Of a stretch of DNA of 51,650 nucleotides, positions 13,193 to 46,550 are shown piece by piece. The translations under genes were made by a program, and so were the position numbers. Each line of letters begins with the position of its first letter. Position 1 is the first letter of the stretch. Source of the stretch: Candidatus Bathyarchaeia archaeon (GTDB taxonomy: Archaea > Thermoproteota > Bathyarchaeia > Bathyarchaeales > Bathycorpusculaceae); contig JBEKGO010000014.1 in assembly GCA_050012755.1 (NCBI GenBank), positions 1 through 51,650 of the forward strand, given 5' to 3'. A model generated the notes under the pieces. It saw nothing but the letters and a program-made list of their open reading frames with translations, made no database searches and was not told the origin of the DNA.

Positions 13193-15526
13193 ATAGAACA
13201 ACTGAATCAAAATGCAACGGTTGTAGAAATAACAGACATCGCGTCTTCAAACAAATGTAGAAACCGAGTTATTCGACTTTTACATGTTGACGACGATCCA
13301 TGCTTTTTAGAGATTTCAAAACAGATTATATCAATGGAAAACAACTTTGAGATCGATAATGCCACATCTGTCGACGAAGCTTTCAAAAAGTTAGAACAGC
13401 AACCATATGATGCAATAGTTTCCGACTATGAAATGCCCCAGAAAAACGGATTAGACTTTCTAAAAAAGATTAGAGAAGAAAATAATCAAATTCCATTTAT
13501 CTTGTTTACAGGCAAAGGAAGAGAAGGCGTTGCCGTTAAAGCTTTAAATTTGGGTGCTGACCGCTACATTGACAAAAATGGTTCGACAGAAACAGTTTAT
13601 TGCGAATTGGCAGACGCAATAAATAAGTCTGTCGAAAGCAAAGAGTCGAAAAAAGCGCTTGCCGAGTCAGAGTTGAATTATCGTACAATGGTTGAGAAAT
13701 CGCTTCAGGGAGTATTAATTACTCAAGTTTCTCCACTGCGTCTGGTTTTTGCCAACGCGTCCATGAGTAAAATGTTGGGCTATTCCATTAAAGAGTTAAA
13801 ATCTCTCTCCCCAAAAGGAGTTGCAGAATTGATATATAATGAAGATAGGATTGCTTTCTTTGCCCGTTTAGAAAGCCGTATGCGTGGTGAACCAGCACCC
13901 TCAAGCCTTGAGTTTAGGGCAGTAAGAAAGAACGGTTCATTAGTTTGGCTGGAAGCATTCGCAAGTCGCATTGAATACATGGGTCAACCAGCGGTACAGG
14001 GCATGTTCTTAGACATTGATGAACGCAAAAAGGTCAACGAGATTTTGCGTGAAAGCGAGCAAAAGTACAGGGAACTGGCAAATTCTTTGCCCAACATTGT
14101 TTATGAATCTGATATAACTGGGAAGGTGGAATTTGTCAACGATAAGGGGCTAGAGATTGCTGGCGTTTCAAATGAGGATTTCAAAAAAGAATTGAATATA
14201 CTGCAGTTCCTTATCCCTGAAGATAGGCAAAGAGCAATGGAAAGTATGCAGCGTTTGTTAGCAGGAGGCAGTAATGTTCCTTCTGAATACGTATTCTTGC
14301 GGAAAGACGGGAGCACTTTTCCTACGCTTATTGCAACAACTCTTCGCATTTCGGGAAACAAGGTGACAGGATTTAGAGGGCTAGTCATTGACATCACTGA
14401 GCGCAAGCAAATGGAACAAGATTTGCAGGCAAGTGACGCTAAGTTTAAGGCCATTAATGAATCTGCGATTGACGCAATTTTTCTATTCGATGAGGAAGAC
14501 AGAATTGTGTATTGGAATCCTGCTGCTGAACAGATTTTTGGTTACACAGCGAGTGAAATAATCGGCAAAAAAGTAAGCGAGAATCTTGTTCCTCCTCGTT
14601 TTGGCAAAGACCACCTTAACCTCATTGCAAAACTTGCTGAAGTCGAAAAAAAGAAGGTTACAGGTGAAATTCTAGAGTTTCCTGCTCTCAGAAAAGATGG
14701 ATCCGAATTTCCGATAGAGCTCTCTATGACTGCTTTCCAACTTGAGGGCATTCGGTACTTTACGGCTATAGCTAGAGATGTCACTGAACGAAAAATAGCC
14801 GAAGAAAAAGTGGATCAGATGGTAAATCAGTTGGTATTGGTTAACGAAAAATTGGGCGTAGTTGGCAGCTTAACTAGGCATGATGTTCGAAACAAGCTTT
14901 CAGCCGTGACTGGTTATGCGTATTTGCTCAAAAAGAAACATAGCGATCTGACAGACATTGTGGATGGACTTAGTAAGATGGAGCAGGCAGTTGCGGAATC
15001 GGTGAAGATTTTTGACTTTGCCAAATTGTATGAACAACTTGGGGTTGAAGACCTGACATACGTCAATGTTGACGCCAAACTGAAAGAAGCCGTTGCTCTT
15101 TTTTCTGGCTCACTCCCCGCTGTCAAAAATGAATGTAGGGGTATGACTGTTTTGGCAGATTCATTTCTAAGGCAACTGTTCTACAATTTCATTGATAATA
15201 CGAGAAAATACGGCGAGAAAACCACAACTATCAGAGTGTATTATGAAGAGGCTGATCAGGAGAGTCTGAAGCTGATCTATGAGGATGACGGAGTAGGCGT
15301 ATCTTTAGAGAACAAACCATGTCTTTTCAAAGAGGGCTTCAGCACAGGCGGTAGCACAGGCTTCGGATTATTCCTAACCAAGAAGATGATGGATGTTTAT
15401 GGCTGGGAAATCCAAGAGAACGGTGAACCTGGCAAAGGAGCCAAATTCACCATAACCATTCCAAAAACGAGCAAGAGCGGCAAAGAAAACTATCGAATCG
15501 ACTCAAAAACAAGTAAAAATTTGTAA
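13193..15526 (+). CDS. REC-PAS(x3)-histidine kinase
   Basis: The frame upstream of 13334 encodes IRLLHVDDD (REC beta1). Also SDYEMP, FTGKG, three PAS repeats, TRHDVRNKL, DDGVG and GFGL. The start is uncertain (ATA 13193 or CTG 13202). Confidence 0.88.
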   Translation: MEQLNQNATVVEITDIASSNKCRNRVIRLLHVDDDPCFLEISKQIISMENNFEIDNATSVDEAFKKLEQQPYDAIVSDYEMPQKNGLDFLKKIREENNQIPFILFTGKGREGVAVKALNLGADRYIDKNGSTETVYCELADAINKSVESKESKKALAESELNYRTMVEKSLQGVLITQVSPLRLVFANASMSKMLGYSIKELKSLSPKGVAELIYNEDRIAFFARLESRMRGEPAPSSLEFRAVRKNGSLVWLEAFASRIEYMGQPAVQGMFLDIDERKKVNEILRESEQKYRELANSLPNIVYESDITGKVEFVNDKGLEIAGVSNEDFKKELNILQFLIPEDRQRAMESMQRLLAGGSNVPSEYVFLRKDGSTFPTLIATTLRISGNKVTGFRGLVIDITERKQMEQDLQASDAKFKAINESAIDAIFLFDEEDRIVYWNPAAEQIFGYTASEIIGKKVSENLVPPRFGKDHLNLIAKLAEVEKKKVTGEILEFPALRKDGSEFPIELSMTAFQLEGIRYFTAIARDVTERKIAEEKVDQMVNQLVLVNEKLGVVGSLTRHDVRNKLSAVTGYAYLLKKKHSDLTDIVDGLSKMEQAVAESVKIFDFAKLYEQLGVEDLTYVNVDAKLKEAVALFSGSLPAVKNECRGMTVLADSFLRQLFYNFIDNTRKYGEKTTTIRVYYEEADQESLKLIYEDDGVGVSLENKPCLFKEGFSTGGSTGFGLFLTKKMMDVYGWEIQENGEPGKGAKFTITIPKTSKSGKENYRIDSKTSKNL

Positions 15527-15824: not shown

Positions 15825-15901
15825 TGGTGCCGAGGGCAGGGTTTGAACATGCGACGACTCGGTCTTCAGCCGAGCGCTCTCCCAGGCTGAGCTACCTCGG
15901 C
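15825..15901 (-). tRNA. tRNA-Phe(GAA), CCA encoded
   Basis: Acceptor stem GCCGAGG/CCTCGGC and anticodon arm CTCGG-CTGAAGA-CCGAG. The T arm GCATG-TTCAAAC-CCTGC has one mismatch. Confidence 0.93.
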
Positions 15902-16117
15902 ACATATTTGGATAGACTTGGAACTTTCAGAGAGCTATATGGTTTGTAGCACCCATACTTATTTACGTTTTCGTAGAGTATCAAATTGTTTTTCTGGCAA
16001 GAGATTCAAAACAATTGACAAAATTTGAGCTCTTCAGTTCTAAAATTTTGAAGGTTTGATTTGAGAAACCCTATCCGACAAGTGCCCTGGGCAGAGAATG
16101 AATTCGAATAAACTTTG

Positions 16118-16393
16118 TCAAACTGGTTCAAGCACAACCTCAATTAAACTATCTTTAAGATTGGGCAATATTTGGTTCAATTGGACGATAACTATTCTTG
16201 GAACTGTTACGCGACCGGCGGGAAGCATTTTGCCTAAAAAACTTTCAGAAAAGCCCAGATTGAATATTCTTAGGGTTATTTTCATTGTTTGGGTAGGTTC
16301 AAGTTTGTATTCCCAGCGGACAATTTTTGGGATTTGGAAGCGGCTCTGTTTTTGCAGTTGAACTTTAAATGTTACTCTATGGGTTAGGGGCAA
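16118..16393 (-). CDS. AbrB/SpoVT-like DNA-binding protein (two swapped-hairpin units)
   Basis: Repeated motifs Q.QSRFQIPKIVR and GRVTVPR; AGGAG RBS upstream. Confidence 0.6.
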   Translation of the reverse strand: MPLTHRVTFKVQLQKQSRFQIPKIVRWEYKLEPTQTMKITLRIFNLGFSESFLGKMLPAGRVTVPRIVIVQLNQILPNLKDSLIEVVLEPV

Positions 16394-16872
16394 ATCAACT
16401 TCTCCTTGGAAGTACTTTCCTGTTCTTTTTTATACTTTTTTGTTCATTCCCATTCTTTTCCATTCATTTCTGTTCTTTTCCAACCTTTTCTGTACGTGAC
16501 CTGCAACTAATTTAGACCCGAAATTAAAAAAGCAACCCAAGACACAAAGAAAAAAATTGCGCAAGAAATCCGTCAATAACTCGTTCACAAGAAAGAGACG
16601 CATAGTTTGAAATATGCGTAAACGGTTTAGCCGATTTACCTGATTCTTCTAAGTTGAAACTAATGCAGGAAACTCATTGAGTGGCTTAGGAAATAGCCAA
16701 TTAAACCAGTGCCTACGAAACAAAGCAACATTAAAAATCCTTCTTGATCAGGTGATAACTCGAATTTAAACTTCTTTTTTAGACTCATGTTGTATACCGC
16801 TATCCTGTTTGTGTTTGTGAGGGGAAAGGTTTTATGAAGGGAAAATACGTAGTTTCAATCCATAACTGCATC

Positions 16873-16949
16873 GGGCCGTTAGTCTAGCTGGCTAGGACGT
16901 CGCCCTCACGCGGCGAAGATCACTGGTTCAAATCCGGTACGGCCCACCA
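16873..16949 (+). tRNA. tRNA-Val(CAC), CCA encoded
   Basis: Acceptor GGGCCGT/ACGGCCC; anticodon arm TCGCC-CTCACGC-GGCGA; T loop TTCAAAT. Confidence 0.95.
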
Positions 16950-17266
16950 GTCGTTTTCTTCTGATACTTTTTTCTAAGCTTGCAGTAGATAGGTTTGCCG
17001 CAATAATCGAAGCAGTTTTCGTGGTACTGTTCGCGGTGAGATTGTATTACGGTATAAATCATCCGCATCCAGAGCATTAAATCAATAATTGTTCCAATGG
17101 TCAACCAGAAATAAACAGTTAGTGTAGACTATGAAAAAGTAAAAATCCGTATTACCTTTGTCACTGCTATAAGCCGTTTTGCTGTTGTGCTTGCGCAGTC
17201 ACATATTTTTAAAAGCAGTTTAGCGTTTGATGCTTTAGTGTACTCTGTTGTTGGGAGGTGTAATCT

Positions 17267-17467
17267 GTGCCTGAAACATCAATTAACATAACTGAGAAAT
17301 TACAGAAGATCGGCCAAACCGCTTCAGAATATAAAGATGCTATTGTAAATCAATTTAAGGATATGGAAGTAGACGTAAAAACCTGGAACTTCTCAGTTGG
17401 AAAAGCCGATAAAGAATATATTGTTGAGGTTAACCTTAAGCTTGGCATTCGATCCAAAAAGGCTTAA
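17267..17467 (+). CDS. Small hypothetical protein
   Basis: Strong GGAGGTG RBS before the GTG start; T-rich terminator downstream. Confidence 0.65.
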   Translation: MPETSINITEKLQKIGQTASEYKDAIVNQFKDMEVDVKTWNFSVGKADKEYIVEVNLKLGIRSKKA

Positions 17468-17658
17468 GTAGATTTTTCCGGAAAATAACAAACCCATTTT
17501 CTTTTAAATATCTTATTTTAGGTTTATCTTTCGTTGAAAAACAAGCTTTTCAGAACTTGCTACATATGCAATTGAGCGGGTATGCTTCGGTGATTTGTCA
17601 CCAAAACAGATAAAAACTCGCTTTGCATCCATCAAGGCTACCTACAAGAGGAATGCGT

Positions 17659-17862
17659 ATGCCGTCTGAAATTACTGATGTTGATAAGTTCGTAGCTATG
17701 AGCGCGAAAGCAAAATATTGCTCAGTGAAAAGGCTTAAGGATACAGTTAAATTGAAGCTTCGCACCCCAAGCCAGCTTTACACTTTAAAAATTGAGCCAC
17801 TGAGGGCTGACGAAATAATCAAGAAGCTTCAATGTGAAATCCAAGAAAAGGAAAAAGAATAA
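17659..17862 (+). CDS. rpl38e: 50S ribosomal protein L38e
   Basis: MPSEITD..KF...VKLKLRTPSQLYTLK is the eL38 signature. Start set to the ATG at 17659. Confidence 0.88.
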   Translation: MPSEITDVDKFVAMSAKAKYCSVKRLKDTVKLKLRTPSQLYTLKIEPLRADEIIKKLQCEIQEKEKE

Positions 17863-18653
17863 TTTTTTCAAACAAACCTAATTTTTTGCTAATCATCTTA
17901 AACGTCACTCACTCTATAAAGTTCAAATTAGAATTCGCGTTTTGTATACGAAAGCATAAACAAAGTGATCGCCATTTTAGTTTACCATTTTTGTCTAAAC
18001 TCCCAAAATTCTCGAAAGTTCACGAACGTTAAATATACATGGCTGAACACAGAACAAAAACTAAGCGGAAAGAGTAGGGATGCCCAAATTGAGCGAATGA
18101 ATAGGCAAAAAAGGAAAAAAAGTGCGTAGAAAACCTAATTTGGAGGACTTTCTAGGCCAAATTTGGAGCTCAGTTGTCGTTAGAGAGCTTATTAGGTGAT
18201 TACTTCTGCGATCAGCTAAGTAAAAAGTCCGAAAGCAGCTTATTTGTTTGGCGAAAAATAGTCGAATGGTTATTTTTTACATTTAAAAGTTAAATTGACC
18301 TATTGAATTTAGTTAATAATGGTTTGTATCTGATTAAGTGTCCATGCTCTTTCAGACTATTTGACGATACGAGATGCGAAGGTGGATATTTTTTCTTTTC
18401 TGAAAAACGAAAGAAGGTTTTTCTGCAAGAGCTGTATAAGCGTTAAATAATATCCTAAGAGGGATTGGCCTAAGGAAAGTTAAGTTGAACTATGTTGACG
18501 AAGGGGAATAATTGATTTTAATGGATTTTGAAATGGGTTTGGTTGATGCTTTTGTATACGGCATGAAAAGGCTGACACTAGCGAAACTGCAATTTTCTCG
18601 TTGGTTAACAAGTAACTTTAACATGCTCTTGTTTAATTCTTGAGGTATCGGCG

Positions 18654-19358
18654 TTGAGTGTTGAGTGTAATCTGATTATTTCGCTGCTTAAATTGACCAA
18701 GAAGGGTGACGTTTTAACTGAAGATGTAAAAAAAGACTCGAGGATACCCGCCTCAACAACGAAGAATTTGCTATCAAAACTGCAAAATGAATGTCTCATT
18801 TATGTTAAAGAAGACCAGGTTGAAATCAACAGTGCAATGAGGCTTAAACTGGCCGTCAAAGCAGCATGTTTAGGGGCCGATGTTGAGCACATTAGCAATT
18901 TACTTTGTTGGCAAGAGTTTGAGGAAATTGCCGCTTTTGCCTTAAGCAATTTCGGTTACGCGGTCGCAAAAAACGTAAGATTCAAACATGCAGGGCGCAG
19001 ATGGGAAATTGATGTGGTGGGCTGTAAAAAACCCTTAGTGGTCTGTATAGATTGTAAGCATTGGCAGCATTCAATTGCTCCTTCAGCTTTGAGAAGAATT
19101 GTTGACTCACAGGTTGAACGAACAAGGGCATTTGCTGATTCTCTTCCAAACGTTTCACTGCACATGGAATGTACAAAATGGAATGAGGCAAAGTTTATTC
19201 CAGCAGTATTATCACTTATGCCAAGTTCATTCAAATTCTACGACAAAGTTCCAGTTGTGCCTGTTCTTCAAATGCAGGATTTTCTAAATCAAATGCCAAT
19301 GTACACTGAATCGCTAAAATCTTTCTATAAACACTTTAACAAGTTAAGCCAAATCTAA
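18654..19358 (+). CDS. wHTH + Mrr/NERD-like PD-(D/E)XK nuclease domain protein
   Basis: WQEFEE, WEIDVVG and CIDCKHW motifs; N-terminal HTH-like helices. Confidence 0.8.
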   Translation: MSVECNLIISLLKLTKKGDVLTEDVKKDSRIPASTTKNLLSKLQNECLIYVKEDQVEINSAMRLKLAVKAACLGADVEHISNLLCWQEFEEIAAFALSNFGYAVAKNVRFKHAGRRWEIDVVGCKKPLVVCIDCKHWQHSIAPSALRRIVDSQVERTRAFADSLPNVSLHMECTKWNEAKFIPAVLSLMPSSFKFYDKVPVVPVLQMQDFLNQMPMYTESLKSFYKHFNKLSQI

Positions 19359-19604
19359 AAAATAAATCCAGTTTTAGCTTCAAATGCGCACCCAATAGAT
19401 ATTCATAAAATCCGTTTATGAAAGCGGTTTTTTGACGAAGAAGTGCGCACCCCACTTGGTTCTTCTTCTTTTGGAAGCTTAGAAGAAGGACAATTGGTAG
19501 CAGCACCGTGTCCTTCTTCTTCTTTCAATAATTCAGGTCAATCGGCTTTCGACGAACGGCTTGCTCAAAGTACTCATATTATCAAAAACAAAAGCCAAAA
19601 CAAG

Positions 19605-20039
19605 CTAACTGTAAGTTGTATCTATGTTAAGGTTGCCACGATCACGCTTAAGGATTCTAACTTTTTCAGGAAGTTTATTTTTTTCCCAATCGGTCCAGCT
19701 GATTTCTTTGAAGAGCCACCTTTTGCCAAGGTGTGCTGCGACGACCGCGTGTTTGTGTGCGTTGTCTGAGGGGATAAATTGGTCAAGGAACCTGAAGAGT
19801 TTGTCGATTTGTTGTTTGGGAAAGTAGGCGTAGTAGCTGGCGTTTTTTACTTCAAAAGCGTAGCTATGTTCGCCTTTTCTAGCCATGATGTCGGGTAAGG
19901 GGTTGAGGCTTGGGTTGCTTACAGGAACCCGGACGGCGTAGTAACCTTTTTTCTGCAGCAACTTGACTAGTACAGTTTCGCTGTAGAAGCCTCTTTTCCG
20001 CCAGCGACGAAGTCTTATTCTATCCAAGTCGGTGCTCAC
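19605..20039 (-). CDS. Holliday junction resolvase Hjc-like endonuclease
   Basis: RKRG...E..LV..L...GY.AVRVP.S....PDIMA...AFEVK; AGGTGG RBS. Confidence 0.82.
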   Translation of the reverse strand: MSTDLDRIRLRRWRKRGFYSETVLVKLLQKKGYYAVRVPVSNPSLNPLPDIMARKGEHSYAFEVKNASYYAYFPKQQIDKLFRFLDQFIPSDNAHKHAVVAAHLGKRWLFKEISWTDWEKNKLPEKVRILKRDRGNLNIDTTYS

Positions 20040-22366
20040 AGTTTTCCACCTGAAACGATTGCTGATTTATCGGTGCTTTAGACATAAAAATTGTTGCTCA
20101 GGAGAACAAAGAAAACTGTGTTGTGTTGATGCTTCTGTATACGTTATTATCCGCTAGTGCTTCTGGATGATGCTGGTGAATGTAAAAATTCGTAATAATA
20201 CTAACCTCACCAAAGACACTGACGTCGAGATCATCATCATCTGCGCACCAACAATATCGCCAGTTTAGGCTATACTAAGCGCTTGAAAAGTAAGCGCTGA
20301 ACGTTAGAAAACCAAAAATTAAGTCCCATAGAGACTGAATTTTCACTATCCAACGTTAAGTTAAGACTCATAAACCTGCTTCGGCACTCGCGTGGCATCC
20401 AGAAGCATCAACTGAACAACCTATTTACAGATCAGCCAGCACAGTTGCCTTTCGAGTCTTGTAAGCGGGCAAATTTTAAAAGCGAAATTAACATCAAATT
20501 TCTTCAAAATCAGCGAAGTTTTCACTTCCTTCGCAAAAATTCGCGGAAATGCTCGAAGCCAAAGCGAAAAAATGGACTTTGGCTTCGCATGGAGATTTTC
20601 GAGGGTACTTATATGAGGCCCCGATATTCTCCATACCAGAGTATTCACACTAGTATGATAAAGGCTAAAATGAGTCTATTTGGCTATTTCAGCTCTAAAT
20701 TGAGGTTTCAAATTATCGTTTCCATTAAAAAATATTGGCCGTTTTTTAGCACAACATATTTCGGAATAAAACAACATCATATCGCTTAGTTTATGGCAAA
20801 ATAAGCCATAATTGAGATTTATTTATCAAATTAAGCCAGACGTTAAACCGTTTTTCAAGGCGCTCGAAAATCTAAAAATCAAGAGTTAATCATAACAAGA
20901 AATTTTCTGATCAGCGCAACCATTGGTTGCCCTCAATTCTTTTCCTAGGCGTCGCCACAATACTAATTGAAAATTATTCCTTAACAACTCTAAGCTTACC
21001 AGGTCCTTTTCAATAAAAGAGAATTAAGGTTGCTGCTTGCGAAAACCGTCTCCTGGACATACTGAACACGACTGAAAAGGGCGCATTTTCAGAATGCAGA
21101 AAATCCTCAAAATAGTTAGAGCTGTATTTCTTAGTCTGATCACAACGTGGACTATGCCTTAGGGGTCAAAGCCAAGTAAGTGCAAAGAGAATTTTCTTTT
21201 GAGGAGTTTTAACTGGAGAAAAAACAAGAGGCATTTATTGTCTTAAGCCCCTTTTTTGCGTATGTGTTTTCGTTGGTAATAGTGCAGAGTGGCAATATGT
21301 GGTCTGCTAAGCCTGATCTAAACTATGCTGAATTGAAGCAATCGCTTGAATCAAGAGATATCGCTGGTGAGTTTAGTTGTGGCAGTATTGCCGGATTAGT
21401 TTGCCATCACAAGCGACAACGAACAAATAGAAATATTCAGATCACTACAAGGCGGTCTATTCGGTATACAAAAGCATCAACCAAACACATTTGATTAGCA
21501 GTAAATTAATGCCTATCTTTGGAGTTTCTATACAATATTAGAACGTCTTTTGCACTACGACGATTAATTGTTACTTTAAATCGAGAATCATGTTGTCATC
21601 GACAGTAGTAATTTAGGTTAAGGCCATAGCAAATTTAGTAATTAAGTGGCGCACCCTTTGTCACTTTGGGCAAGTGCGGTAGAACTGATTCGGGGGTCTC
21701 ATTTTTCCTTTTTATCAAAAATAGGCTTTTGCGAAATAGTTGCCACACGGAGTTGACGACTAGTATCATAATTAACTGACAAAGAAGGCATCTTAAAGTG
21801 TATGCGCGGTCAAAAAAATTGCCAAATATTTATTGTTTGGTGAGAAAATGCTTTGCAAAAGTTGGTGATTCCTCTTAAGAGCCTTTGGCTTAATCTAGTG
21901 TTTTAGTCACGAAAGCGTTCGAATAAACGCGAAGGTTAAATATACATCCATTATGGAGTCAAAGTCTAAGCAAATCAACCAGGTGTTTTTACTTAATTGT
22001 TGTCACAGAATGGAAATGATGCCTCAGAATAGCGGACTCGACGGAAAATCAGGTTAAGATTGGTATTTTTTGGTTCTTTTACTTAATTGTAAGAAAAGTT
22101 CAGTCAATGAGAGTTTTAGGCTATCGAAAACTTTGTGCGATGAATTTTTTCAGCATTTAAATTTAAAATGTAGACCACGTTCTATCTGAAAAATTAACTT
22201 TTGAAGTCAATTTGTACATACTGTGCGTGTTTTTTGGGTGCATCTATTCCGAAAAGCAAAGTAAATCGCGCTTGTGGACGAAGTAGCTACACTTCTGCAC
22301 GCGACTGCCCTCCTTATTACCTTAAAGAAGAACACCTTTCGGCATATTACTTCAGCTGTGCATCAA

Positions 22367-22402
22367 ACTGTATATCATACTGTATAACATACTGTATAAA
22401 CT
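22367..22402. repeat. Tandem 12-bp repeat, three units
   Basis: ACTGTATATCAT ACTGTATAACAT ACTGTATAAACT. Confidence 0.8.
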
Positions 22403-22679
22403 CTTGACCTATAGAGGCAGATTGTGAGAGAGAACGAAGAAATCGAGGTAATTCAAAACAGCTAATCACAACAAAGCAAAATAAGCGTTGGTTTCATCTT
22501 CCTTCTGAAACCGTAAAAGAGGAAGATAAAATGGGGCACTGATTCCAGACTTTCAGCCTCTATTGAAGAAGAAAACAACACGTGCTAATTTCAATTGTCG
22601 CTGTTCTGCCTGTTGTCGTTATACTTAATATCAGAAACATTTTTCTGTATTTTCAAATTAAGAAATACAATTAGAAAAG

Positions 22680-23105
22680 GTGCTCAATACGTCAAACTTT
22701 AAAGTTGTGAATAGAAGCATCAATTTTACCACCAAAGGCGAAATAGATTTTGTAGATTTATCCGACAGAATTCAGGAAGAGGTGACAAGTTCAGGTATCA
22801 AAAACGGGCTGGTACATGTCTTTGCGCCTCATGCGACAGGCATTCTTATTTTAACAGAAAACGACAATGCTCTCCTTGATGACATCAAGGTTTTGCTCGA
22901 AGAACTTGCGCCGAGACATAAAGTGTACCAGCATCCATCTAATGCGCATTCCCATTTGCGGTCTATACTTCTGCCGCCAGACAAAACTTTACCAATAGTT
23001 AACGGTTGTGTAACGTTTGGAACTTGGCAATCTCTGCTTTTTGTAGAGACTGATGTGTACTCAAGAAAAAGAACTTTGATAATTCAAGTTTTGGGCGAGC
23101 CCTAA
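22680..23105 (+). CDS. yjbQ: YjbQ/UPF0047 secondary thiamine-phosphate synthase-like protein
   Basis: PHATG...EN, Y.H.SNAHSHLRS and FGTWQS..FVE.D motifs. Confidence 0.88.
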   Translation: MLNTSNFKVVNRSINFTTKGEIDFVDLSDRIQEEVTSSGIKNGLVHVFAPHATGILILTENDNALLDDIKVLLEELAPRHKVYQHPSNAHSHLRSILLPPDKTLPIVNGCVTFGTWQSLLFVETDVYSRKRTLIIQVLGEP

Positions 23106-23622
23106 AACCAACCTTTTCTATGGGTCACTATTCAAAGTTGATGCTTTCGCTTCTCGTACGGCAGAGTAAACGCTCTTTAACATGCAATTTTAACGTTTCA
23201 GTGGTAATCATGCGGTTCTGCATAAGTCTTTTTAACTATTTATTGTAAAAAGTGACCATTCGAATAAATTTCGGAGGCTGTGATAACAAAATGTTTTGAT
23301 AATGAAAGTAAATAGAAGAATTTAACTGGCGAAAACTGTCCAATTTTCAATCAATCTATTCCTGAAACATACAGAATGGATTCTAGAAATGCAAAAAAGG
23401 TGTCTAGCATCAAAAATAGATATTTTCAGCCTCATAAAATTAAATCACTAAAATAAAAGTGACTAAAAAACAATCTATTTTACAGTTTTCTTAGCACTGC
23501 CAAATAGAAAAATAGGCAGAAGTTAATTTAATCTGAAAAACAAAAAGGGAGAGTGAAACTTTAGGCCTTTTCAGTTTTTCAAATTCCATGATTATATAAA
23601 GTTCGCTGCACTTCGACAAAAA

Positions 23623-24351
23623 TTAACCTTTTCGCTCAGTTCGGACCCTTTTAGAGGAGCCTCGTGGTCGCATCCGTGCTTTTTTCTTTACTGCAGCCCT
23701 CTCTGAAGGTTTCTCTTCCAATGCATCAGGAGTGGTTTCTTCTAATGGTAAGGTATCTGCATCATCTGGAAAGTCATCGTTTGTAGCCTGTTCAGCTCCT
23801 GCCTGGAGCATCGTTGCAAACGCTCGATCAACATCACCGGGCTCGGCGTTAATGCCCAACGTAGCATCTGTAAGAACCACTGTCGCGAAGCCAAGCTTAC
23901 GGGCATCAAGAACGGTATTTACTACACAGTAATCAGTTGCTAATCCCCCAACAAAGAGACGTTTAGTCTCACACATTTTTAATTCATGGGCAAAGTTGGT
24001 TCCATCGAAAACGGAATAAGCTTCATGCTCAGGATTTGTAGCCTTTGAAATGACTGCAATAATTGAAGACAGCTTCAAGTCAGGACTAAACTTAGCGCCC
24101 TCTGTTTCCTGGACACAATGAGGAGGCCACGGACCACCTTGTGACTTAAACGATATATGATTGGGCGGATGCCAATCTCTTGAGGCAAAAATGTGCGCTT
24201 TGGCATAAGCAAAACGTTTGATATAGGCATTAAGGACAGGAATTATTTCGTTCCCACCTTCAACTGGGAGAGAGCCGCCTGGCAAGAAATCTTTTTGGAT
24301 ATCGGTTATCAACAGGGCGTCTGAGTTTACTATATTATATTTTGTTTTCAT
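23623..24351 (-). CDS. pncA: Nicotinamidase/pyrazinamidase
   Basis: DIQKDFLPGGSL, SRDWHPPNHISF, WPPHCVQ, AYSVF and GLATDYCV motifs. Confidence 0.92.
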   Translation of the reverse strand: MKTKYNIVNSDALLITDIQKDFLPGGSLPVEGGNEIIPVLNAYIKRFAYAKAHIFASRDWHPPNHISFKSQGGPWPPHCVQETEGAKFSPDLKLSSIIAVISKATNPEHEAYSVFDGTNFAHELKMCETKRLFVGGLATDYCVVNTVLDARKLGFATVVLTDATLGINAEPGDVDRAFATMLQAGAEQATNDDFPDDADTLPLEETTPDALEEKPSERAAVKKKARMRPRGSSKRVRTERKG

Positions 24352-24495
24352 TAAGTCGCCTTATTTTTTATTTAGAAATTTTTAGAAATTCAATATAGGA
24401 ATAAGTAGTAACTATTGAATAAACTTTTTGAAGCAAGCACAATGTCCAATCGAAAAGTAATTAAGTTTTTGTGAGTTTAACTTGATGGTGAAGCC

Positions 24496-24765
24496 ATGTC
24501 GGTTTTAGCTTATGTTCTTTTTAAAGAAGCTTCGGGAACAGAACGTGAAGTTGCTCAAAAAATGACTGAATTTGAAGAGGTTATGCAGGCAGACGTAGTT
24601 TTTGGTGAGTATGATGTGATAGCGAGGCTGGTAACAACTAATTTGGAAAAGCTGCAGGATTTTGTTTCAGACAAAATAAGAACGGTTCCGAACGTACTTG
24701 TTACTTCAACCATGATAATTTCAAAGGAATACAAAGGAAAAGTCTATCGACCCAAAAACAAGTAG
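24496..24765 (+). CDS. Stand-alone Lrp/AsnC ligand-binding (RAM) domain protein
   Basis: AYVL, VFGEYDVIA and IRTVPNV..TSTMI motifs; no HTH. Confidence 0.85.
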   Translation: MSVLAYVLFKEASGTEREVAQKMTEFEEVMQADVVFGEYDVIARLVTTNLEKLQDFVSDKIRTVPNVLVTSTMIISKEYKGKVYRPKNK

Positions 24766-24852
24766 TTTTCAGTTTGTTTTGTTGATGCTTTCGTATACCA
24801 TACGGATATGCTTATCTTTTAATCAGATACAATAAAATACGAGGCATCACGC

Positions 24853-26394
24853 ATGCAAACGAAAGACATTAACACTTTTATATCAAGCAGAGAAATGCGA
24901 GCTTTAGAGACTAATGCGGAATACTACGGTATATCCCTGCTTCAATTAATGGAAAACGCTGGATTCGATGTTGCTAAGGAAGTCATTTCACGTTTCTCTA
25001 ATGAGAAAAAAATTGTTATTTTCTGCGGATTAGGCGGAAATGGCGGCGACGGGTTCGTTGCTGCTAGACATCTCTTAGCAGCTGGGTTCAAAGTAACCGT
25101 TGTTCTAGCTGGAAGAAGCCATGATATTCACCATGAAGCTGCATTACAAAATTGGTTGATTCTTGAATCTTCACATGATAAGGTTTCACTTATTGAAATA
25201 AATGACAGCTCTCTGATACCTAAGGTCTCTGCTGATGTTGCAATTGATGCTTTGCTTGGAACTGGAACCAAGGGGCAACTTAAGCCACCGGTATCCCAAA
25301 TGGTTGAGCACATCAATTCTTTGAAAGCGTTCAAATTATCAGTTGATGTTCCAACAGGTATTGACGCCGATACTGGAGAAATCTTAGGAACAGCAGTTAA
25401 AGCCGATCTTACAGTAACTTTTTACAAGAAAAAGAAAGGTCTAGAAAAAGCCAAAGAATATGTTGGAAAATTAGTTGTGAATGACATAGGGTTGCCTAAG
25501 GAGTATGAACAGTTTGCAGGTCCAGGAGACGTTGTTCTATCAAGAAGGCAGCGAAGTCCGTCGGCTCACAAAGGCGATTTTGGACGATTGTTGGTTATTG
25601 GGGGAAGTGAAGTATATTCTGGTGCGCCAACATTAGTTTCGCTTGGTGCTTTAAGGACAGGCGTAGATCTTGTTTATCTTGCGGCGCCGACGAAATCTGC
25701 TTATGCGATTTCTTCAATGTCGCCAGACTTGATTACAATAAAACTTAATGGTGACAATATAAATCCGAGCAATGTTGAAACATTGAAACCTTATTTGAAC
25801 ATGGTTGACGCGGTTGCAATGGGTCCAGGCATGGGATTAAATCCTGAAACCTCAGAGTTTGTCAAGCTATGCATCATAGAAGTTGAGAAGGCAGGCAAAC
25901 CTCTGCTTTTGGATGCTGACGGGCTTAAAGCGTTTGCAAAGTTTAAGCGACCCCTTAAGGTACCGCTGGTTTTGACTCCTCACTCAGGCGAATACACAAT
26001 ATTAACAGGCGAAATTCTACCTGAAAACCAAGATGAACGCGCTTTGGCAGTACAGAAAACCGCGAAAAAACTCAAAGCTGTCGTTTTGGTGAAAAGCAAA
26101 GTTGACATCATATGCGACACTGAAAAAATTAAATTGAATTTTACAGGCAATGCTGGCATGACAGTTGGCGGTACAGGCGACGTACTCAGCGGTATAGTTG
26201 CTGGTTTGATGGCTCAACATGTTGACCCATTTGAAGCGGCAGTTGCTGGCGCTTTTGTTAATGGTGCTGCAGGCGATTTTGTTGCAGAAGAAATTGGTTT
26301 TCACATGGTGGCGACGGACATTATTGATTGGATTCCTCAGCTTTTGGATGATCCGATGAGTCACTTGAAGGTGCGCAAACCAAATGGAAAATAA
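24853..26394 (+). CDS. nnr: Bifunctional NAD(P)H-hydrate epimerase/dehydratase
   Basis: LMENAG, GGNGGDG, DVPTG, HKGDFG, DADG, TPHSGE and GGTGDVLSG motifs. Confidence 0.93.
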   Translation: MQTKDINTFISSREMRALETNAEYYGISLLQLMENAGFDVAKEVISRFSNEKKIVIFCGLGGNGGDGFVAARHLLAAGFKVTVVLAGRSHDIHHEAALQNWLILESSHDKVSLIEINDSSLIPKVSADVAIDALLGTGTKGQLKPPVSQMVEHINSLKAFKLSVDVPTGIDADTGEILGTAVKADLTVTFYKKKKGLEKAKEYVGKLVVNDIGLPKEYEQFAGPGDVVLSRRQRSPSAHKGDFGRLLVIGGSEVYSGAPTLVSLGALRTGVDLVYLAAPTKSAYAISSMSPDLITIKLNGDNINPSNVETLKPYLNMVDAVAMGPGMGLNPETSEFVKLCIIEVEKAGKPLLLDADGLKAFAKFKRPLKVPLVLTPHSGEYTILTGEILPENQDERALAVQKTAKKLKAVVLVKSKVDIICDTEKIKLNFTGNAGMTVGGTGDVLSGIVAGLMAQHVDPFEAAVAGAFVNGAAGDFVAEEIGFHMVATDIIDWIPQLLDDPMSHLKVRKPNGK

Positions 26395-26941
26395 CGCCGA
26401 ACCTACAGCGCCGAAATTTCCGTTTCGAATAACTATTTATCATGCGGCTCAGGATGACCCTAAAAAAAACACTGCCCTAAGACTAAAGCGTCGAGGATTT
26501 GCCCGGATAGTTACTAGGACACGATTTCTCCCAAAACGAGCCATAGTGCTAAATCCTTTCGGAGAAATAGCCTTTTCGCCAGCGGATAGGGAAAGAATTC
26601 AGCAATTTGGTTTGGCTGCAGTGGATTGCAGTTGGGAACACGCACAAAAAGTTATGAGCACACACGTAAAGGGAACGAGCCGCTGCTTGCCAATTCTTAT
26701 TGCAGGAAACCCCGTCAATTTCGGCAAACTAACAAAGTTGACTACTGCCGAAGCCGTTGCATCCGCCTTGTATATTGCAGGTTTCAAAAAAGAGTCAGAA
26801 GATCTTTTGTCCATTTTTACGTGGGGTCACTCATTTTTTGAATTAAACGGAATGTTGCTTGACAATTACACTACGGCGAAGGATAGCGGTGAAATTGTTG
26901 AAATGCAAACTCAACTCTTAAAAGCCAAAAAGTGCACCTGA
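26384..26941 (+). CDS. tsr3: 16S rRNA aminocarboxypropyltransferase (DUF367)
   Basis: QDDPKKNT, SPAD, DCSW, R.LP.L.AGNPVNFGK..KL..AEA and F.WGH.F..LN motifs. Confidence 0.92.
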   Translation: MENNAEPTAPKFPFRITIYHAAQDDPKKNTALRLKRRGFARIVTRTRFLPKRAIVLNPFGEIAFSPADRERIQQFGLAAVDCSWEHAQKVMSTHVKGTSRCLPILIAGNPVNFGKLTKLTTAEAVASALYIAGFKKESEDLLSIFTWGHSFFELNGMLLDNYTTAKDSGEIVEMQTQLLKAKKCT

Positions 26942-27079
26942 AATGTGTTTTGTTGATGCTTTTGTATACAAAACCTGAAGGCTTATAGCACACAATGGCA
27001 AATTTGATTAAAGCGCAATAGAAAGGAGGGGTGAACCTCGGAATACATAACTGATTTCTATCTATTCTTAGCTTCAGTC

Positions 27080-27667
27080 ATGCTTATTTCACTCTCTGGC
27101 GTCCTAATGCCTGGACCGTTATTTGCAATCACCGTCAAAAAGGCAGCAAAAAGCAAGATTGCAGGCGCTTTAATCGCAGTTGGCCACGGCATAGTCGAGT
27201 TTCCGCTTATGTTTTTGATTTTCTTTATACTAAGTGAATTTAATATTCCAAGCATTGTTCAGGTTGGGGTGGGTTTAGTGGGTGGCTTCTTGATGATCCT
27301 TATGGGCATACAAACATTCAGAAACAGACACAAAAATGAAGAATCACAAGTAAATTTGAAACGGGATTCAATACTTGCGGGAGTTTACACCACTGCAGCA
27401 AATGCAGGCTTTATCCTATGGTGGTTGACCATTGGCACAACTTTGATACTTAATGCCCGACTGTTTGGTTTTGTAGGGTTTTCGGTTTTTGCCGGTGTTC
27501 ATTGGCTATGCGACTTCTCCTGGTACACTTTAGCGGCATTAGTAATTTTTAAGTCACAACGGTTTTGGAACGATCGAGTCAGGATGGGAATTACGATTTT
27601 TTGCGTTGCTGTATTCATCGGTTTCGGAGCATACTTTATGGGTTCTGCCGTGTGGTCCTTAATTTAG
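27080..27667 (+). CDS. LysE family translocator
   Basis: SGVLMPGP, GHGIVE and N..FILWW motifs. The true start may lie a few codons upstream. Confidence 0.85.
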   Translation: MLISLSGVLMPGPLFAITVKKAAKSKIAGALIAVGHGIVEFPLMFLIFFILSEFNIPSIVQVGVGLVGGFLMILMGIQTFRNRHKNEESQVNLKRDSILAGVYTTAANAGFILWWLTIGTTLILNARLFGFVGFSVFAGVHWLCDFSWYTLAALVIFKSQRFWNDRVRMGITIFCVAVFIGFGAYFMGSAVWSLI

Positions 27668-27701
27668 TACAGTTATATAGAAAGGTGAAAATGTAATACT
27701 C

Positions 27702-28241
27702 ATGGAATTTCACGTTGGAAATACAATCTTACTATTAGTCAAAGGCGATATTACAGACATCGAGGCAGATGCGATTGTTAACGCGGCAAATTCATCCCTT
27801 ATGGGCGGTGGCGGAGTAGACGGTGCTATACATAGGAAAGGCGGACCTAAAATTCTTGAAGAATGCAAGCGAATAAGGGCAACTGAGTGGCCTGATGGCT
27901 TGCCAACTGGAAAAGCAGTTGTTACTTCAGGCGGCAACTTGAAGGCTAAATATGTTATTCACACGGTGGGACCTGTGTGGCTTGGAGGCTTTCACGTTGA
28001 AGCTGAACTGTTAAAACAAGCATACAGAAACTCATTGAAACTTGCAGTTGCGAAAGGAATTAGATCAATTGCGTTTCCATCAATTAGCACCGGAGCTTAT
28101 GGCTATCCTATTGAAGAAGCCAGCCGTATTGCAGTAAAAACGGTAAAGGAGTTTTTGGAAAAAGATGGGAGAGTGGAGAAGGTTATTTTCGTTTTGTTTT
28201 CTGAGCAGGACTTAGAAATCTATTTGGACACTGTGAAATAA
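27702..28241 (+). CDS. Macro-domain O-acetyl-ADP-ribose deacetylase (YmdB-like)
   Basis: GDIT, AIVNAANSSLMGGGGVDGAIH, HTVGP and FPSISTGAYGYP motifs. Confidence 0.92.
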   Translation: MEFHVGNTILLLVKGDITDIEADAIVNAANSSLMGGGGVDGAIHRKGGPKILEECKRIRATEWPDGLPTGKAVVTSGGNLKAKYVIHTVGPVWLGGFHVEAELLKQAYRNSLKLAVAKGIRSIAFPSISTGAYGYPIEEASRIAVKTVKEFLEKDGRVEKVIFVLFSEQDLEIYLDTVK

Positions 28242-28367
28242 GCAAGCACGAAGGCATAAACGAAGCAAACCGCGTCCATTCGCAATTATTTTTATGCCAT
28301 CAGAAAGGAAGAGAAGGAATAATGCTTACTTGTGCCCTCTTGGCGCCAAGCTCGAATTAATTAGTTT

Positions 28368-28913
28368 TCATGCACTAGTGGTTTTTATTTGAATCAGTGA
28401 GTAAACATCGTATTTGTCGCCTAAGACTTTTCTTCCGTCTAAGTAGCACAATTCAACTAGAAAGCCTAAGCCAACAACGTTGGCGCCTAATTTTTCAACT
28501 AATTCGATGTTGGCTTTCACGGTTCCACCCGTAGCAAGCAAATCGTCAATTATCAAAATGTTTGCATCCTTCTCAATGGCGTCTTGGTGGATCTCAATAG
28601 TGTCGCTCTCGTATTCTTTCTTGTATGTTAGATTTACGCATTTGAACGGCAGTTTTCCTTTTTTCCTGACGGGAACAAACCCAACGCCCAATTCGTAAGC
28701 CAAAGCAGAGCCAATTATGAAGCCTCTCGCTTCATTTGAAACGATCGCATCGATTGGTTCGCCTCTGTAATGGTCAGCTAATTGCTTGATGGCTGTGTGG
28801 AAGCAGACTTTGTCTTTCAAAAGTGGAGTTATATCCCAGAATACGACACCCTTAAACTCGGGAATTCTTCGAATCTTAGATTTAAGATCAATTTTTTTTT
28901 CAGTTTTAGTCAC
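28368..28913 (-). CDS. apt: Adenine phosphoribosyltransferase
   Basis: F.DITPLL, EARGF, RKKGKLP and IIDDLLATGGT motifs. Start set to the GTG at 28913. Confidence 0.92.
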   Translation of the reverse strand: MTKTEKKIDLKSKIRRIPEFKGVVFWDITPLLKDKVCFHTAIKQLADHYRGEPIDAIVSNEARGFIIGSALAYELGVGFVPVRKKGKLPFKCVNLTYKKEYESDTIEIHQDAIEKDANILIIDDLLATGGTVKANIELVEKLGANVVGLGFLVELCYLDGRKVLGDKYDVYSLIQIKTTSA

Positions 28914-45995: not shown

Positions 45996-46205
45996 TTAAT
46001 GGCGCTTATAAATAAACCTTAAGACAGCAATGATCAGCAGTATGACACCCAACACAAATAAGAGAGTGCCTGCACCTGAGCCTCGCAGTGGAGCACCATG
46101 AACATTTATTATATATTCTCCAACGATCACTAAGAGTATTCCTAGCACACCCAGAATGATAGCATGCATGTTGCGGTTGTTAGTTGTTTTTCCTTGTTCT
46201 CCCAT
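45996..46205 (-). CDS. Small 2-TM membrane protein
   Basis: Two hydrophobic helices; GGGAGA RBS. Confidence 0.7.
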   Translation of the reverse strand: MGEQGKTTNNRNMHAIILGVLGILLVIVGEYIINVHGAPLRGSGAGTLLFVLGVILLIIAVLRFIYKRH

Positions 46206-46405
46206 TTCAAAATCTCCCTTTATCCTCCATCATTTCTTTTAGTATTTAAGCTTATACCGAAAAATTATATGACTTTTATGCAGTCTATGCAACCACAAGA
46301 AAACCAGAAATCAGTTTTTGTCACCCCAAGACCTAAAAAATCAGCCCACAACCATCAAACCATAATCATAAACCAAAAACACCTCGCTTAGTGAGGAACA
46401 CCACC

Positions 46406-46447
46406 CTAAAGGGTACACCCCTCACAAGCAAGGACTCTGGTTTTGCA
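46406..46447. repeat. 42-bp direct repeat, copy 1
   Basis: CTAAAGGGTACACCCCTCACAAGCAAGGACTCTGGTTTTGCA, 36/42 identical to 47663..47704. Confidence 0.85.
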
Positions 46448-46550
46448 TGTAATGTACATAGCATAGAATTAGTCAAGAAATGTCAACTAAGTGTAGTCAA
46501 GAAACTTTTACGAAAACCTTTAATTTAAAGTCTACGCCAAGGCTTCATGA

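Follow-up and report, generated by a model that had tools for sequence, protein, structure and literature searches.

A short asymmetric motif, here termed M1, is clustered on the chromosome of a Candidatus Bathyarchaeia archaeon at a locus that may mark the end of chromosome replication, because it is conserved order-wide and lies directly opposite the origin. We tentatively favour, at somewhat less than an even chance, a reading in which M1 copies are polar, putative protein-binding sites at the replication terminus that would work like bacterial Ter sites; if true, this would be a replication-terminus marker, a kind of site so far undescribed in archaea.

The window, the whole stretch of 51,650 bases analysed here, was searched with the core query GTTGATGCTTTTGTATAC at up to 3 mismatches, with 100 shuffles as control. 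Eight matches were found, all at 17226–26969 (a span of about 10 kb), against a shuffle expectation of 0.05, and none of the 100 shuffles attained eight. The cluster had been described in an initial annotation made from the letters alone, and the description is borne out: a 13-nt partial copy lies at 23137, a longer match of roughly 29 nt is present at 18531, 26941 and 21492 (reverse complement), the remaining ~40 kb contain no copy at ≤3 mismatches, and all window copies are intergenic relative to conserved genes. The clustering is valid genome-wide, because the 2.41-Mb genome (65 contigs, 2,408,866 bases) holds outside the window just two further exact copies, C5:63877+ and C15:21069−, and five weak matches with 3 mismatches. 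The features are listed below in window coordinates.

17215..17243 (core 17226–17243), +: degenerate M1 copy, 3 mismatches, 24 nt 5′ of a 66-aa ORF
17944..17972 (core 17944–17961), −: M1 copy, 2 mismatches, left arm of divergent pair
18252..18294 (core 18262–18281), +: M2, a second conserved motif, midway in the divergent M1 pair, BRE/TATA-like
18531..18559 (core 18542–18559), +: M1 copy, exact core, 95 nt 5′ of the wHTH-NERD nuclease gene
18654..19358, +: single-copy gene for a wHTH + PD-(D/E)xK (NERD/Mrr_cat) nuclease
19605..20039, −: hjc (Holliday junction resolvase), its transcription leading away from the convergent pair
20114..20142 (core 20125–20142), +: M1 copy, 1 mismatch, left arm of the putatively ancestral convergent pair
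20143..20394, +: interior of the convergent pair, polar, no ORF or Rfam match
20395..20423 (core 20395–20412), −: M1 copy, 3 mismatches, well preserved among relatives, the convergent pair's right arm
21464..21492 (core 21464–21481), −: M1 copy, exact core
23137..23149, +: partial M1 copy, 13 nt, GTTGATGCTTTCG, 32 nt past the UPF0047 stop codon
23229..23273 (core 23244–23263), −: second M2 copy, inverted relative to the first
24770..24798 (core 24781–24798), +: M1 copy, 1 mismatch
26941..26969 (core 26952–26969), +: M1 copy, exact core, begins at the stop codon of tsr3; lysE follows after 111 nt

The copy at 17944(−) lies 82 nt past the rpl38e stop codon and faces that gene, and the copy at 24781(+) is 5 nt past the stop codon of an AsnC-domain ORF and 55 nt before the nnr start. 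At 21464, the motif overlaps only a mechanically called 76-aa ORF (21264..21494), in a stretch not conserved in relatives.

All 24 of the 24 genomes from the same genus contain M1, as do 34 of the 41 relatives taken overall, other families of the order included, with hits concentrated at one syntenic locus; a reversed-motif control gave 0–1 matches per strand per genome. A profile built from 76 copies in 18 genomes is conserved from −13 to +14, defining an asymmetric site of about 28 nt that comprises two TTTTGT-centred halves 12 nt apart and has a sharp edge, with conservation at background directly past GTATAC. A convergent pair with arms 220–590 bp apart recurs in seven families (f1, f2, f3, f7, f8, f9 and f11), and its interior can be aligned between families, with CTGGWG repeats, an AT-rich stretch of ~29 nt, TCACCA repeats, TTAGMCTAC and AAAGCC as blocks common to several of them. 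Judged from these alignments, the ancestral unit consists of a single convergent M1 pair (→ ←), its arms about 270 bp apart and its interior polar and partly conserved. In the window's family, extra copies surround this pair, and the array around it in the genus is two-fold symmetric (−,+,+,−,−,+).

The position of the locus was examined relative to the origin. Canonical ORB boxes with a G-string and an AT-rich stretch occupy an 800-bp spacer upstream of orc1-1 on contig C5, an arrangement also found in two relatives (G040 at 115,327; G385 at 2,099,291/2,099,542). Across seven single-contig genomes, representing 6 genera, 2 families and sizes of 2.15–3.04 Mb, the distance from cluster midpoint to orc1-1 is 0.484–0.500 genome lengths in every case. 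In G040, an unbiased two-change-point fit to strand-corrected codon-3 AT skew (955 long ORFs, 53% of the genome) placed one switch at 115.7–116.5 kb, beside orc1-1 at 113.6 kb, and the other, of opposite sign, at 1,221.7 kb, about 15 kb from the M1 cluster (1,202,978–1,207,739). The fit scored 11,619 compared with 3,874 ± 459 in 200 permutations, and arcs set a priori gave p = 4e-23. G003 gave no clear skew signal (40 samples); G385 has a switch of origin type, but none of terminus type was seen from −40 to +53 kb around the pair (AT3 p = 0.49; GC3 p = 0.02, in the wrong sense); and the window's own genome shows a weak change (p 0.03–0.1) that ranks fourth of 26 contigs. The skew inflection that the initial annotation had asked about is thus found at the locus in one closed relative, and it is of terminus type, not origin type. 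Its suggestion of a lineage-specific cis-acting locus holds as regards order-wide conservation, a single syntenic place and a fixed chromosomal position; an ordinary signal serving individual genes fits less well, and the option of an origin does not fit.

Orientation is also organized with respect to replication. Among M1 copies more than 20 kb from the cluster, 22 of 24 point from origin to terminus, compared with 518 of 955 (54%) long ORFs in G040. The 22/24 count overstates the evidence, because the relatives are not independent and many solitary copies are orthologous. The copies in G003 (962907−, 963531+, 967475+, 967745−, 969043−, 971230+) follow the same order as in the window, such that each incoming fork would meet a copy in the 'blocking' sense first.

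We propose that a sequence-specific DNA-binding protein would recognize M1 and that M1 would act at the DNA level through that bound protein, affecting replication in a direction-dependent manner, as bacterial Ter sites do. A fork would pass an M1 copy pointing its own way and be slowed or stopped by one pointing against it; the convergent pair would thereby let both forks into its interior and not out, and the origin-proximal copies would stop forks heading back to the origin. In the genus, the additional copies probably assemble into a larger terminus complex, or influence neighbouring promoters as well. One M1 copy lies 95 nt upstream of the gene for the wHTH-nuclease, which is only a candidate M1-binding protein. 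In all families of the order that yielded this gene, it is syntenic with M1.

The parallels with Tus/Ter of Escherichia coli and RTP/Ter of Bacillus subtilis, bacterial replication fork traps described in a review (PMC10331603), include asymmetric sites of ~23–30 bp, in few copies concentrated opposite the origin, and distal copies oriented such that the fork of each replichore meets them in one sense. The B. subtilis terminus has an inverted pair at its centre and sites made of two half-sites, resembling the convergent M1 pair and its TTTTGT-centred halves, and both tus and rtp have a ter site in their promoter area (PMC10331603), as one M1 copy lies just 5′ of the gene for its candidate binder. 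M1 differs from Ter in that it has no sequence likeness to it, that genome G000 has no Tus or RTP homologue, that 6–9 copies lie within 10 kb in orientations that do not form two clean opposed groups, and that the host is an archaeon; fork arrest by M1 is suggested by analogy. The archaeal replicative helicase is MCM. Like KOPS/AIMS-type polar words, M1 is oriented origin-to-terminus along each replichore, with a single point of convergence; those words, however, are 8-mers in hundreds of copies, and M1 is 28 nt with 2–8 copies outside the cluster.

We count in favour of a terminus role the conservation, the convergent pair, the DNA-level pattern of change in family f7, the siting of the ORB-marked origin elsewhere, the antipodal position, the G040 skew, the 22/24 polarity and the Ter parallels. 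Against it we count the extra cluster copies, which violate strict trap polarity; the skew support, which comes from one genome, with G385 lacking a local terminus-type switch; the absence of a Tus or RTP homologue; the copies 55–95 nt before the nnr and wHTH-nuclease starts, placed like operators or upstream activating sites; the G040 copy at 1,171,318, inside an ORF; and the wHTH-nuclease family, which occurs almost throughout the phylum (270 of 301 genomes), with no M1-like repeats beside the gene and no terminus position in other classes. The locus may also be a centromere or parS site, a reading without support here.

Those promoter-proximal copies bring in a second explanation, doubtful but with an appreciable chance of being right, in which M1 serves a local regulator as operator or upstream site. 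That regulator, perhaps the wHTH-nuclease or a different wHTH/RHH protein, would control neighbouring genes and a few elsewhere, and the terminus position would be incidental. M1 lies 24–111 nt before the starts of the ORF at 17267, the wHTH-nuclease, nnr, lysE and an RHH-like ORF on C5, with spacing roughly preserved in the genus (68–95 nt to the wHTH-nuclease, 55–75 nt to nnr); promoter-like M2, then M1, then the nuclease gene follow one another in fixed order at the genus loci; and one solitary copy adjoins RFC genes, near GINS-like and MCM-like ORFs named from N-terminal sequence only. However, the distances to starts and TATA-like boxes vary (24, 55, 95 and 111 nt), the copies at 17944(−) and C15:21069(−) are directed towards 3′ ends of convergent genes, and the neighbours (rpl38e, hjc, nnr, tsr3, lysE, UPF0047 and isochorismatase) have no common theme. 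Neither the antipodal position in 7 of 7 closed genomes nor co-orientation of distal copies well beyond that of genes is predicted by a regulon.

It is unlikely that M1 copies are sites of recombination or cleavage by a site-specific enzyme such as a tyrosine recombinase or the FokI-like wHTH-nuclease, or domesticated terminal inverted repeats used by it, serving terminus-linked chromosome resolution or segment inversion. Such a role would suit the terminus position, dif-like, and the sharp outer edge of M1 at the palindrome GTATAC, whose copies face outward in the '− … +' units, each with one M2. In G013 and G005, relative to G000 and G003, the block from wHTH-nuclease to isochorismatase is inverted, and inverted M1 copies lie at the ends of the inversion. 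Across 14 sequences, the active-site residues of the nuclease (E88, E90, D120, D133-x-K135) do not vary, and a fold search matched FokI and other PD-(D/E)xK nucleases. Integrase genes or fragments lie 10–35 kb away in three closed genomes, and weak tyrosine-recombinase-like ORFs (PF00589, E about 1e-3, sub-cut-off) occur in G040 within the pair and in G030 next to it; these two, however, have no homologue in G000, and that of G040 sits in a ~900-bp insertion between 11-bp direct repeats. In four metagenome runs, exact-match contigs cross every M1 copy with no alternative junctions, although contigs mask rare variants, and the divergent pair showed no target-site duplications on inspection by eye. 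The archaeal dif/XerA chromosome dimer resolution site shares the terminus-region location with M1 but, as described in Cortez et al. 2010 (PMC2958812), is a single 11-6-11 imperfect palindrome, whereas M1 is asymmetric and multi-copy, with no conserved dif-like palindrome between the pair arms.

We consider it decidedly improbable that M1 works at the level of transcripts, whether as a T-rich directional terminator or 3′-end signal, or as an inverted-pair stem flanking and processing a non-coding RNA encoded in the interior. The motif's forward strand is rich in T and includes two TTTT runs, forward copies lie 0–32 nt past co-oriented stop codons (tsr3, the AsnC-domain ORF, LigB, UPF0047 for the partial copy, and a ribosomal-protein gene in G003), the right arm in G026 and G030 lies ~10 nt past the stop codon of an AEP-like gene, and the pair arms could form a stem of at least 18 bp around the conserved ~250-nt interior. 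Archaeal intrinsic termination requires only T-runs, which alone would not account for 28 conserved positions, and the copies at 17944, 18542, 20125 and 21464 have no co-oriented gene upstream. RNAalifold on six genus copies gave little besides the terminal stem, and the covariation term was about 0; the interior matches nothing in Rfam even when E is allowed up to 10, and SRP RNA and RNase P RNA are located elsewhere in the genome. In family f7, GTATCC replaces GTATAC in every M1 copy, including solitary ones that lack a pairing partner, a pattern that, read from sequence comparison, is one of DNA-level rather than RNA-stem evolution.

The leading option of the initial annotation, boxes around the unwinding element of a second, orc-independent origin, is very improbable: inverted asymmetric boxes do border ~270-bp and ~600-bp non-coding stretches, the interior carries CTGGWG/TCACCA repeats every ~10 nt around its AT-rich stretch, an AEP primase-like gene abuts the pair in f3 and f7 and an antipodal second origin is geometrically sensible, but G040 skew has exactly two turning points instead of the four expected from two origins, no orc1/cdc6 gene lies nearby and M1 is unlike the canonical ORB beside orc1-1 in the same genome. 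ORB and mini-ORB boxes, bound by Orc1/Cdc6, do resemble M1 in being asymmetric, ~25–30 bp, inverted around non-coding DNA and conserved over large distances; they differ in sequence, in lying opposite the M1 locus and in the sign of the G040 skew change. The M1 locus is not the origin: canonical ORBs with a G-string mark that beside orc1-1, on another contig. As the initial annotation had stated, the window lacks cdc6: Cdc6_C (PF09079) is absent from its contig, with matches on C5 and C16 only.

The hjc gene adjoins the convergent pair in families f2 and f3 too. The two M2 copies are the only ones in the genome at ≤2 mismatches in the 20-nt core, and one 3-mismatch match lies on C22 (979, −). 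The G040 copy at 1,171,318 has 2 mismatches, and the ORF that contains it encodes 255 aa.

An 18-mer repeated in both orientations had been described in the initial annotation, and the repetition is real: at up to three mismatches the core GTTGATGCTTTTGTATAC has eight copies in the window, all within 17226-26969, where shuffled sequences give an expectation of 0.05. Also genuine are two further features claimed there, a partial copy at 23137 and a longer match of about 29 nt. Across the source Bathyarchaeia assembly (G000; 65 contigs, 2,408,866 bases, the window being contig C14), only two more exact 18-mer copies (C5:63877, plus strand; C15:21069, minus strand) and five weak matches were found outside the window, so the clustering is genome-wide and not merely window-wide. 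Homologues of one neighbouring protein carry names that assign the organism to Bathyarchaeia. A profile built from 76 copies in 18 genomes is conserved over positions -13 to +14, counted from where the core begins, with the consensus AnTKTGTTTKGTTGATGCTTYTGTATAC and an abrupt drop to background past GTATAC. This motif, M1, is asymmetric, with two TTTTGT-centred halves 12 nt apart. Its copies are spaced 270 to 3300 bp apart in both orientations with genes between them, which is not the arrangement of a CRISPR array. The core of the cluster reads -,+,+,-,-,+ in the window and in the relative G003, and is two-fold symmetric about a convergent pair (plus at 20125, minus at 20395, about 270 bp apart). 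The solitary copy C15:21069 sits within a replication-gene neighbourhood (C15:18374-24070) containing, in order, ORFs for RFC small and large subunits and glutamate-dehydrogenase-like, GINS-like and MCM-like ORFs, names assigned by eye from N-terminal sequences only.

The window locus comprises rpl38e, a gene for a winged helix-turn-helix (wHTH) plus NERD/Mrr-type nuclease, hjc, UPF0047, an isochorismatase-family gene, an AsnC-ligand-domain ORF, nnr, tsr3, lysE and a macro-domain gene. Features with coordinates, including a second conserved motif, M2, are as follows.

13334-15526, large response-regulator/PAS/histidine-kinase hybrid gene, directly left of the cluster
15825-15901, minus strand, tRNA-Phe, after the hybrid gene
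16873-16949, tRNA-Val, after the hybrid gene
18252-18294, M2 (consensus CGAAAwwwwwTCGAATGGTnAyTTTTTACAwTAAAyAGTTAAA), first copy
18654-19358, wHTH plus PD-(D/E)xK nuclease gene
23229-23273, M2, second copy, inverted relative to the first

At up to two mismatches in its 20-nt core, M2 has just these two copies in the source genome, with one three-mismatch match on contig C22; by its sequence it looks like a BRE/TATA promoter. The order is invariable: M2, 250-290 nt, M1, about 95 nt, and the start of the wHTH-nuclease. In the loci of G013 (L014) and G005 (L023), the block from the wHTH-nuclease to the isochorismatase gene is inverted relative to G000 and G003, with the inversion ending at M1 copies, and M2 lies on the opposite side of the isochorismatase gene from that in the window; tblastn with the window ORF as query (E below 1e-5) did not recover the AsnC-domain ORF from the locus of G013. 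Window 20856-22630, about 1.8 kb, holds no notable ORF and no nucleotide conservation in the genus relatives compared, and could represent inserted or degenerated sequence. For an ABC ATPase paralogue (window 31062-31865; within the cluster in G003, G013 and G040), identity as a recombinase was rejected.

M1 is present in all 24 genus genomes and, taking the relatives together, in 34 of the 41, against 0-1 matches per strand per genome for a reversed control pattern; among 40 relatives it was not found at up to two mismatches in G027, G028, G029, G033, G035, G037 and G039. The bulk of the copies in each genus member falls within a single syntenic region some 10 kb long. Elsewhere in the order, families typically carry just one convergent pair, M1(+) ... 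M1(-), spaced 220-590 bp. Eleven pair interiors from six families align in one polarity and have blocks in common (CTGGWG repeats, an AT-rich stretch of about 29 nt, TCACCA repeats, TTAGMCTAC and AAAGCC). On these alignments we take the convergent pair as the probable ancestral unit, the extra copies in f1, the family of the window, being presumed later additions. Every copy in family f7, solitary ones included, reads GTATCC in place of GTATAC, a change better matched by co-evolution of M1 and a protein that binds it than by covariation of an RNA stem. Inside the pair of G040 (L015:10545-11460), past the conserved interior and before the right arm, lies an insertion of about 900 bp bounded by 11-bp direct repeats, TCCTAACAGTT, with a weak tyrosine-recombinase-like ORF. 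In families f3 and f7 the pair is adjoined on its right arm by the gene for a 273-312-aa protein resembling archaeo-eukaryotic primases (AEP-like), with D-I-D, SGNGxH and RVFTCPxSLH-type motifs recognized by eye, no Pfam match and no homologue found in G000 (tblastn, E below 1e-3). Its genes are:

L110:3911-4849, AEP-like protein gene in G026
L016:8411-9232, AEP-like protein gene in G030

The cluster is not a canonical origin: M1 differs from the origin recognition box (ORB), and canonical CTCCAGTAGAAGC...GGGGTGT boxes are instead found upstream of the initiator gene orc1-1 (C5, G040 and G385). The canonical origin of G000 is an 800-bp spacer (C5:47260-48058) upstream of orc1-1 (46033-47259, minus strand), with three to four ORB boxes of this type, G-strings, both orientations and an AT-rich stretch. 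The reported lack of cdc6 in the window was borne out, with PF09079 matches on C5 and C16 only and none on the window contig, and in relatives closed into single contigs both orc1 genes lie 0.4-1.5 Mb away from the cluster. In seven of seven closed genomes (2.15 to 3.04 Mb; six genera, two families), the distance from orc1-1 to the cluster midpoint is 0.484-0.500 genome lengths, a deviation of 0.03-1.6% of the genome from the exact antipode; for a locus placed at random, the chance of lying within 1.6% of that point is about 3%. Retention of the antipodal position through a 0.9-Mb change in genome size is an argument for a tie between locus and terminus. In this respect it also differs from parS and segS sites, which lie beside parAB or segAB and are usually origin-proximal.

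Copies of M1 at distances above 20 kb from the cluster have a consistent polarity when orc1-1 is set as origin and the cluster as terminus: 22 of 24 are directed away from the origin and towards the terminus (G040, 5/5; G003, 2/2; G013, 3/3; G353, 6/7; G382, 1/1; G385, 1/1; G402, 4/5), a count that overstates independence because several of these copies are orthologous. Both exceptions are two-mismatch matches. Many distal copies sit in the origin-proximal part of each arm, directed away from the origin, and the arrows meet at the ancestral convergent pair. Gene orientation is not the cause of this polarity, as just 518 of the 955 long ORFs of G040 run in the direction of replication.

Plain GC skew and gene-strand bias (40 samples of 20 kb in G003 and G040) were noisy, and a gene-strand peak at the G003 cluster was dropped as it was estimated to be within random-walk range. 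Codon-3 AT skew was computed in G040 for each long ORF (53% of the genome) after subtraction of the coding-strand mean and projected on the plus strand. Its cumulative curve is a clean V. An unbiased two-change-point fit places the switches at 115.7-116.5 kb and 1,221.7 kb, with a score of 11,619 compared with 3,874 +/- 459 in 200 permutations; the first adjoins orc1-1 (113.6 kb) and an ORB (115.3 kb), and a plateau from 1.165 to 1.225 Mb contains the cluster (1,202,978-1,207,739), about 15 kb from the second switch. With just two switches of opposite sign, G040 has one origin and one terminus. The skew inflection anticipated at the locus is present in G040, with the opposite sign to the orc1-1 switch. 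The G003 curve was without clear signal; G385 has a clear origin switch (p = 2e-5), and a terminus-type switch was not seen within -40/+53 kb of its M1 pair. A change near 30-36 kb in G000 is weak and in the expected sense. The terminus assignment accordingly rests on geometry in seven genomes and skew in one.

We tentatively propose, as a reading that is plausible though short of probable, that M1 copies are polar, protein-bound sites at the replication terminus, comparable to bacterial Ter sites. We infer both the step from terminus element to bound protein and that from bound protein to fork barrier. If a copy were passable by forks running in its own sense, the convergent pair would act as a minimal trap, each fork passing the first arm, traversing the interior and meeting the second arm head-on. 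The main internal contradiction is that head-on copies are outermost in the -,+,+,-,-,+ array, in conflict with a strict trap; possible explanations are that the extra cluster copies are leaky, that they help to assemble a looped terminus complex or that they double as regulatory sites. A fuller version is more doubtful, namely that M1 is the first sequence-defined archaeal terminus, with polar barriers to the MCM replisome, the pair as minimal trap, origin-near copies as guards stopping origin-ward forks and a lineage-specific binder. That binder could be the adjacent FokI-like wHTH-nuclease, a candidate that might act alongside the neighbouring Hjc in processing the last replication intermediates. 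As set out in a review of bacterial systems (PMC10331603), Ter sites resemble M1 in being few, asymmetric and centred opposite the origin, in having distal copies in the sense passed by the replichore's own fork, and in having one copy right before a DNA-binding-protein gene. Tus (PF05472) and RTP (PF02334) had no matches in G000, in searches that matched the E. coli and B. subtilis controls, respectively. We file the M1 system as a putative functional analogue of Ter systems without homology, outside the Tus and RTP families; if the terminus reading is true, it arose independently of both.

That M1 is instead the site of a local transcription-factor regulon is unlikely. Copies 55-95 nt ahead of gene starts suit such a role, but the geometry of the cluster and the polarity of M1 are at odds with it. 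Nor does M1 look like a promoter-linked site with fixed spacing and a common orientation to genes, a possibility raised in the initial annotation: M1-to-start distances are 24, 55, 95 and 111 nt, and the 3' ends of convergent genes are what two of the copies face.

A role as rearrangement sites is distinctly unlikely, even with an inversion in the genus whose ends coincide with inverted M1 copies, the sharp GTATAC edge, and integrase-like ORFs inside or beside the pair in family f7. Against it, exact contigs from four metagenome runs (16500-28500) bridge every M1 copy without alternative junctions. The metagenome joints listed have short sides (18-33 letters) or lie in contigs differing from the window; we interpret them as coming from relatives or from cross-matching between motif copies, and as evidence neither for nor against active inversion. 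M1 is also not dif-like: dif is a single imperfect palindrome with 11-bp arms and a 6-bp spacer, whereas M1 is asymmetric and multi-copy, and no conserved dif-like palindrome (10-12/4-9/10-12) was found in 11 pair interiors. The inverted repeats flanking Thermococcales dif, as treated in Cortez et al. 2010, may bear on this comparison.

An element acting at the RNA level is improbable. The T-rich strand and the M1 copies closely following stop codons would suit it, but solitary copies change in concert, structural covariation is lacking and RNAalifold gives little besides a terminal stem. Searches of Rfam returned only tRNAs above the gathering score in the window and nothing relevant at E up to 10 in 16000-28000; identification of the pair interior as SRP RNA or RNase P RNA was rejected, both being located elsewhere in the genome. 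A second origin at the locus is highly improbable, being contradicted by the two-switch skew curve of G040.

To our knowledge, Sulfolobus is the only archaeon studied for replication termination, and we know of defined termination sites only in some bacteria, and in eukaryotes as local barriers. The M1 motif string was not found in the literature searched, and searches on Bathyarchaeia origin, terminus or skew, and on archaeal termination, returned nothing relevant and no defined archaeal terminus sites, respectively. If the terminus reading is true, a single-origin archaeal lineage evolved its own terminus marker. These Bathyarchaeia are hardly cultivable; the 28-nt M1 would be a concrete DNA bait with which to pull out its binding protein, and a cheap anchor to orient and check Bathyarchaeia assemblies, with ORB and orc1-1 marking the origin and the M1 cluster the terminus. 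Even if M1 is regulatory, its fixed antipodal position over genomes of 2.15-3.04 Mb needs explanation. Termination in Sulfolobus is reported as stochastic fork collision (PMC3020120).

The wHTH-nuclease is a candidate M1 binder, no more. In each family of the order with a detected gene, that gene is single copy and sits 1-3 kb from M1. Of 40 relatives, 28 carry nuclease and M1 together, four neither, three the nuclease only and five M1 only (mostly incomplete genomes). The PD-(D/E)xK residues are invariant in 14 aligned sequences from this order, and the AlphaFold model is confident (pLDDT 89.8), resembling FokI and other restriction-fold nucleases at the domain level only. A sequence search against solved structures, at E up to 1, gave no match, and from Pfam and NCBIfam it had nuclease-domain matches only. 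A general partnership of the nuclease with inverted repeats was rejected: none was convincing within 6 kb either side of the gene at 20 loci from other classes, and a dedicated repeat search of eight of these likewise gave no convincing repeats. At one locus, beside the homologue in G143, from another class, an unrelated CRISPR array (L175:7172-8270; 16 repeats of about 26 nt, period about 70 nt) adjoins the gene, probably incidentally. We also rejected the nuclease as a general terminus marker, its genes in other classes lying 0.14-0.41 genome lengths from orc1 (genome sizes rounded) and, in G117, adjoining orc1. The family, found as a single copy in 270 of the 301 genomes that sample the phylum, may merit its own study.
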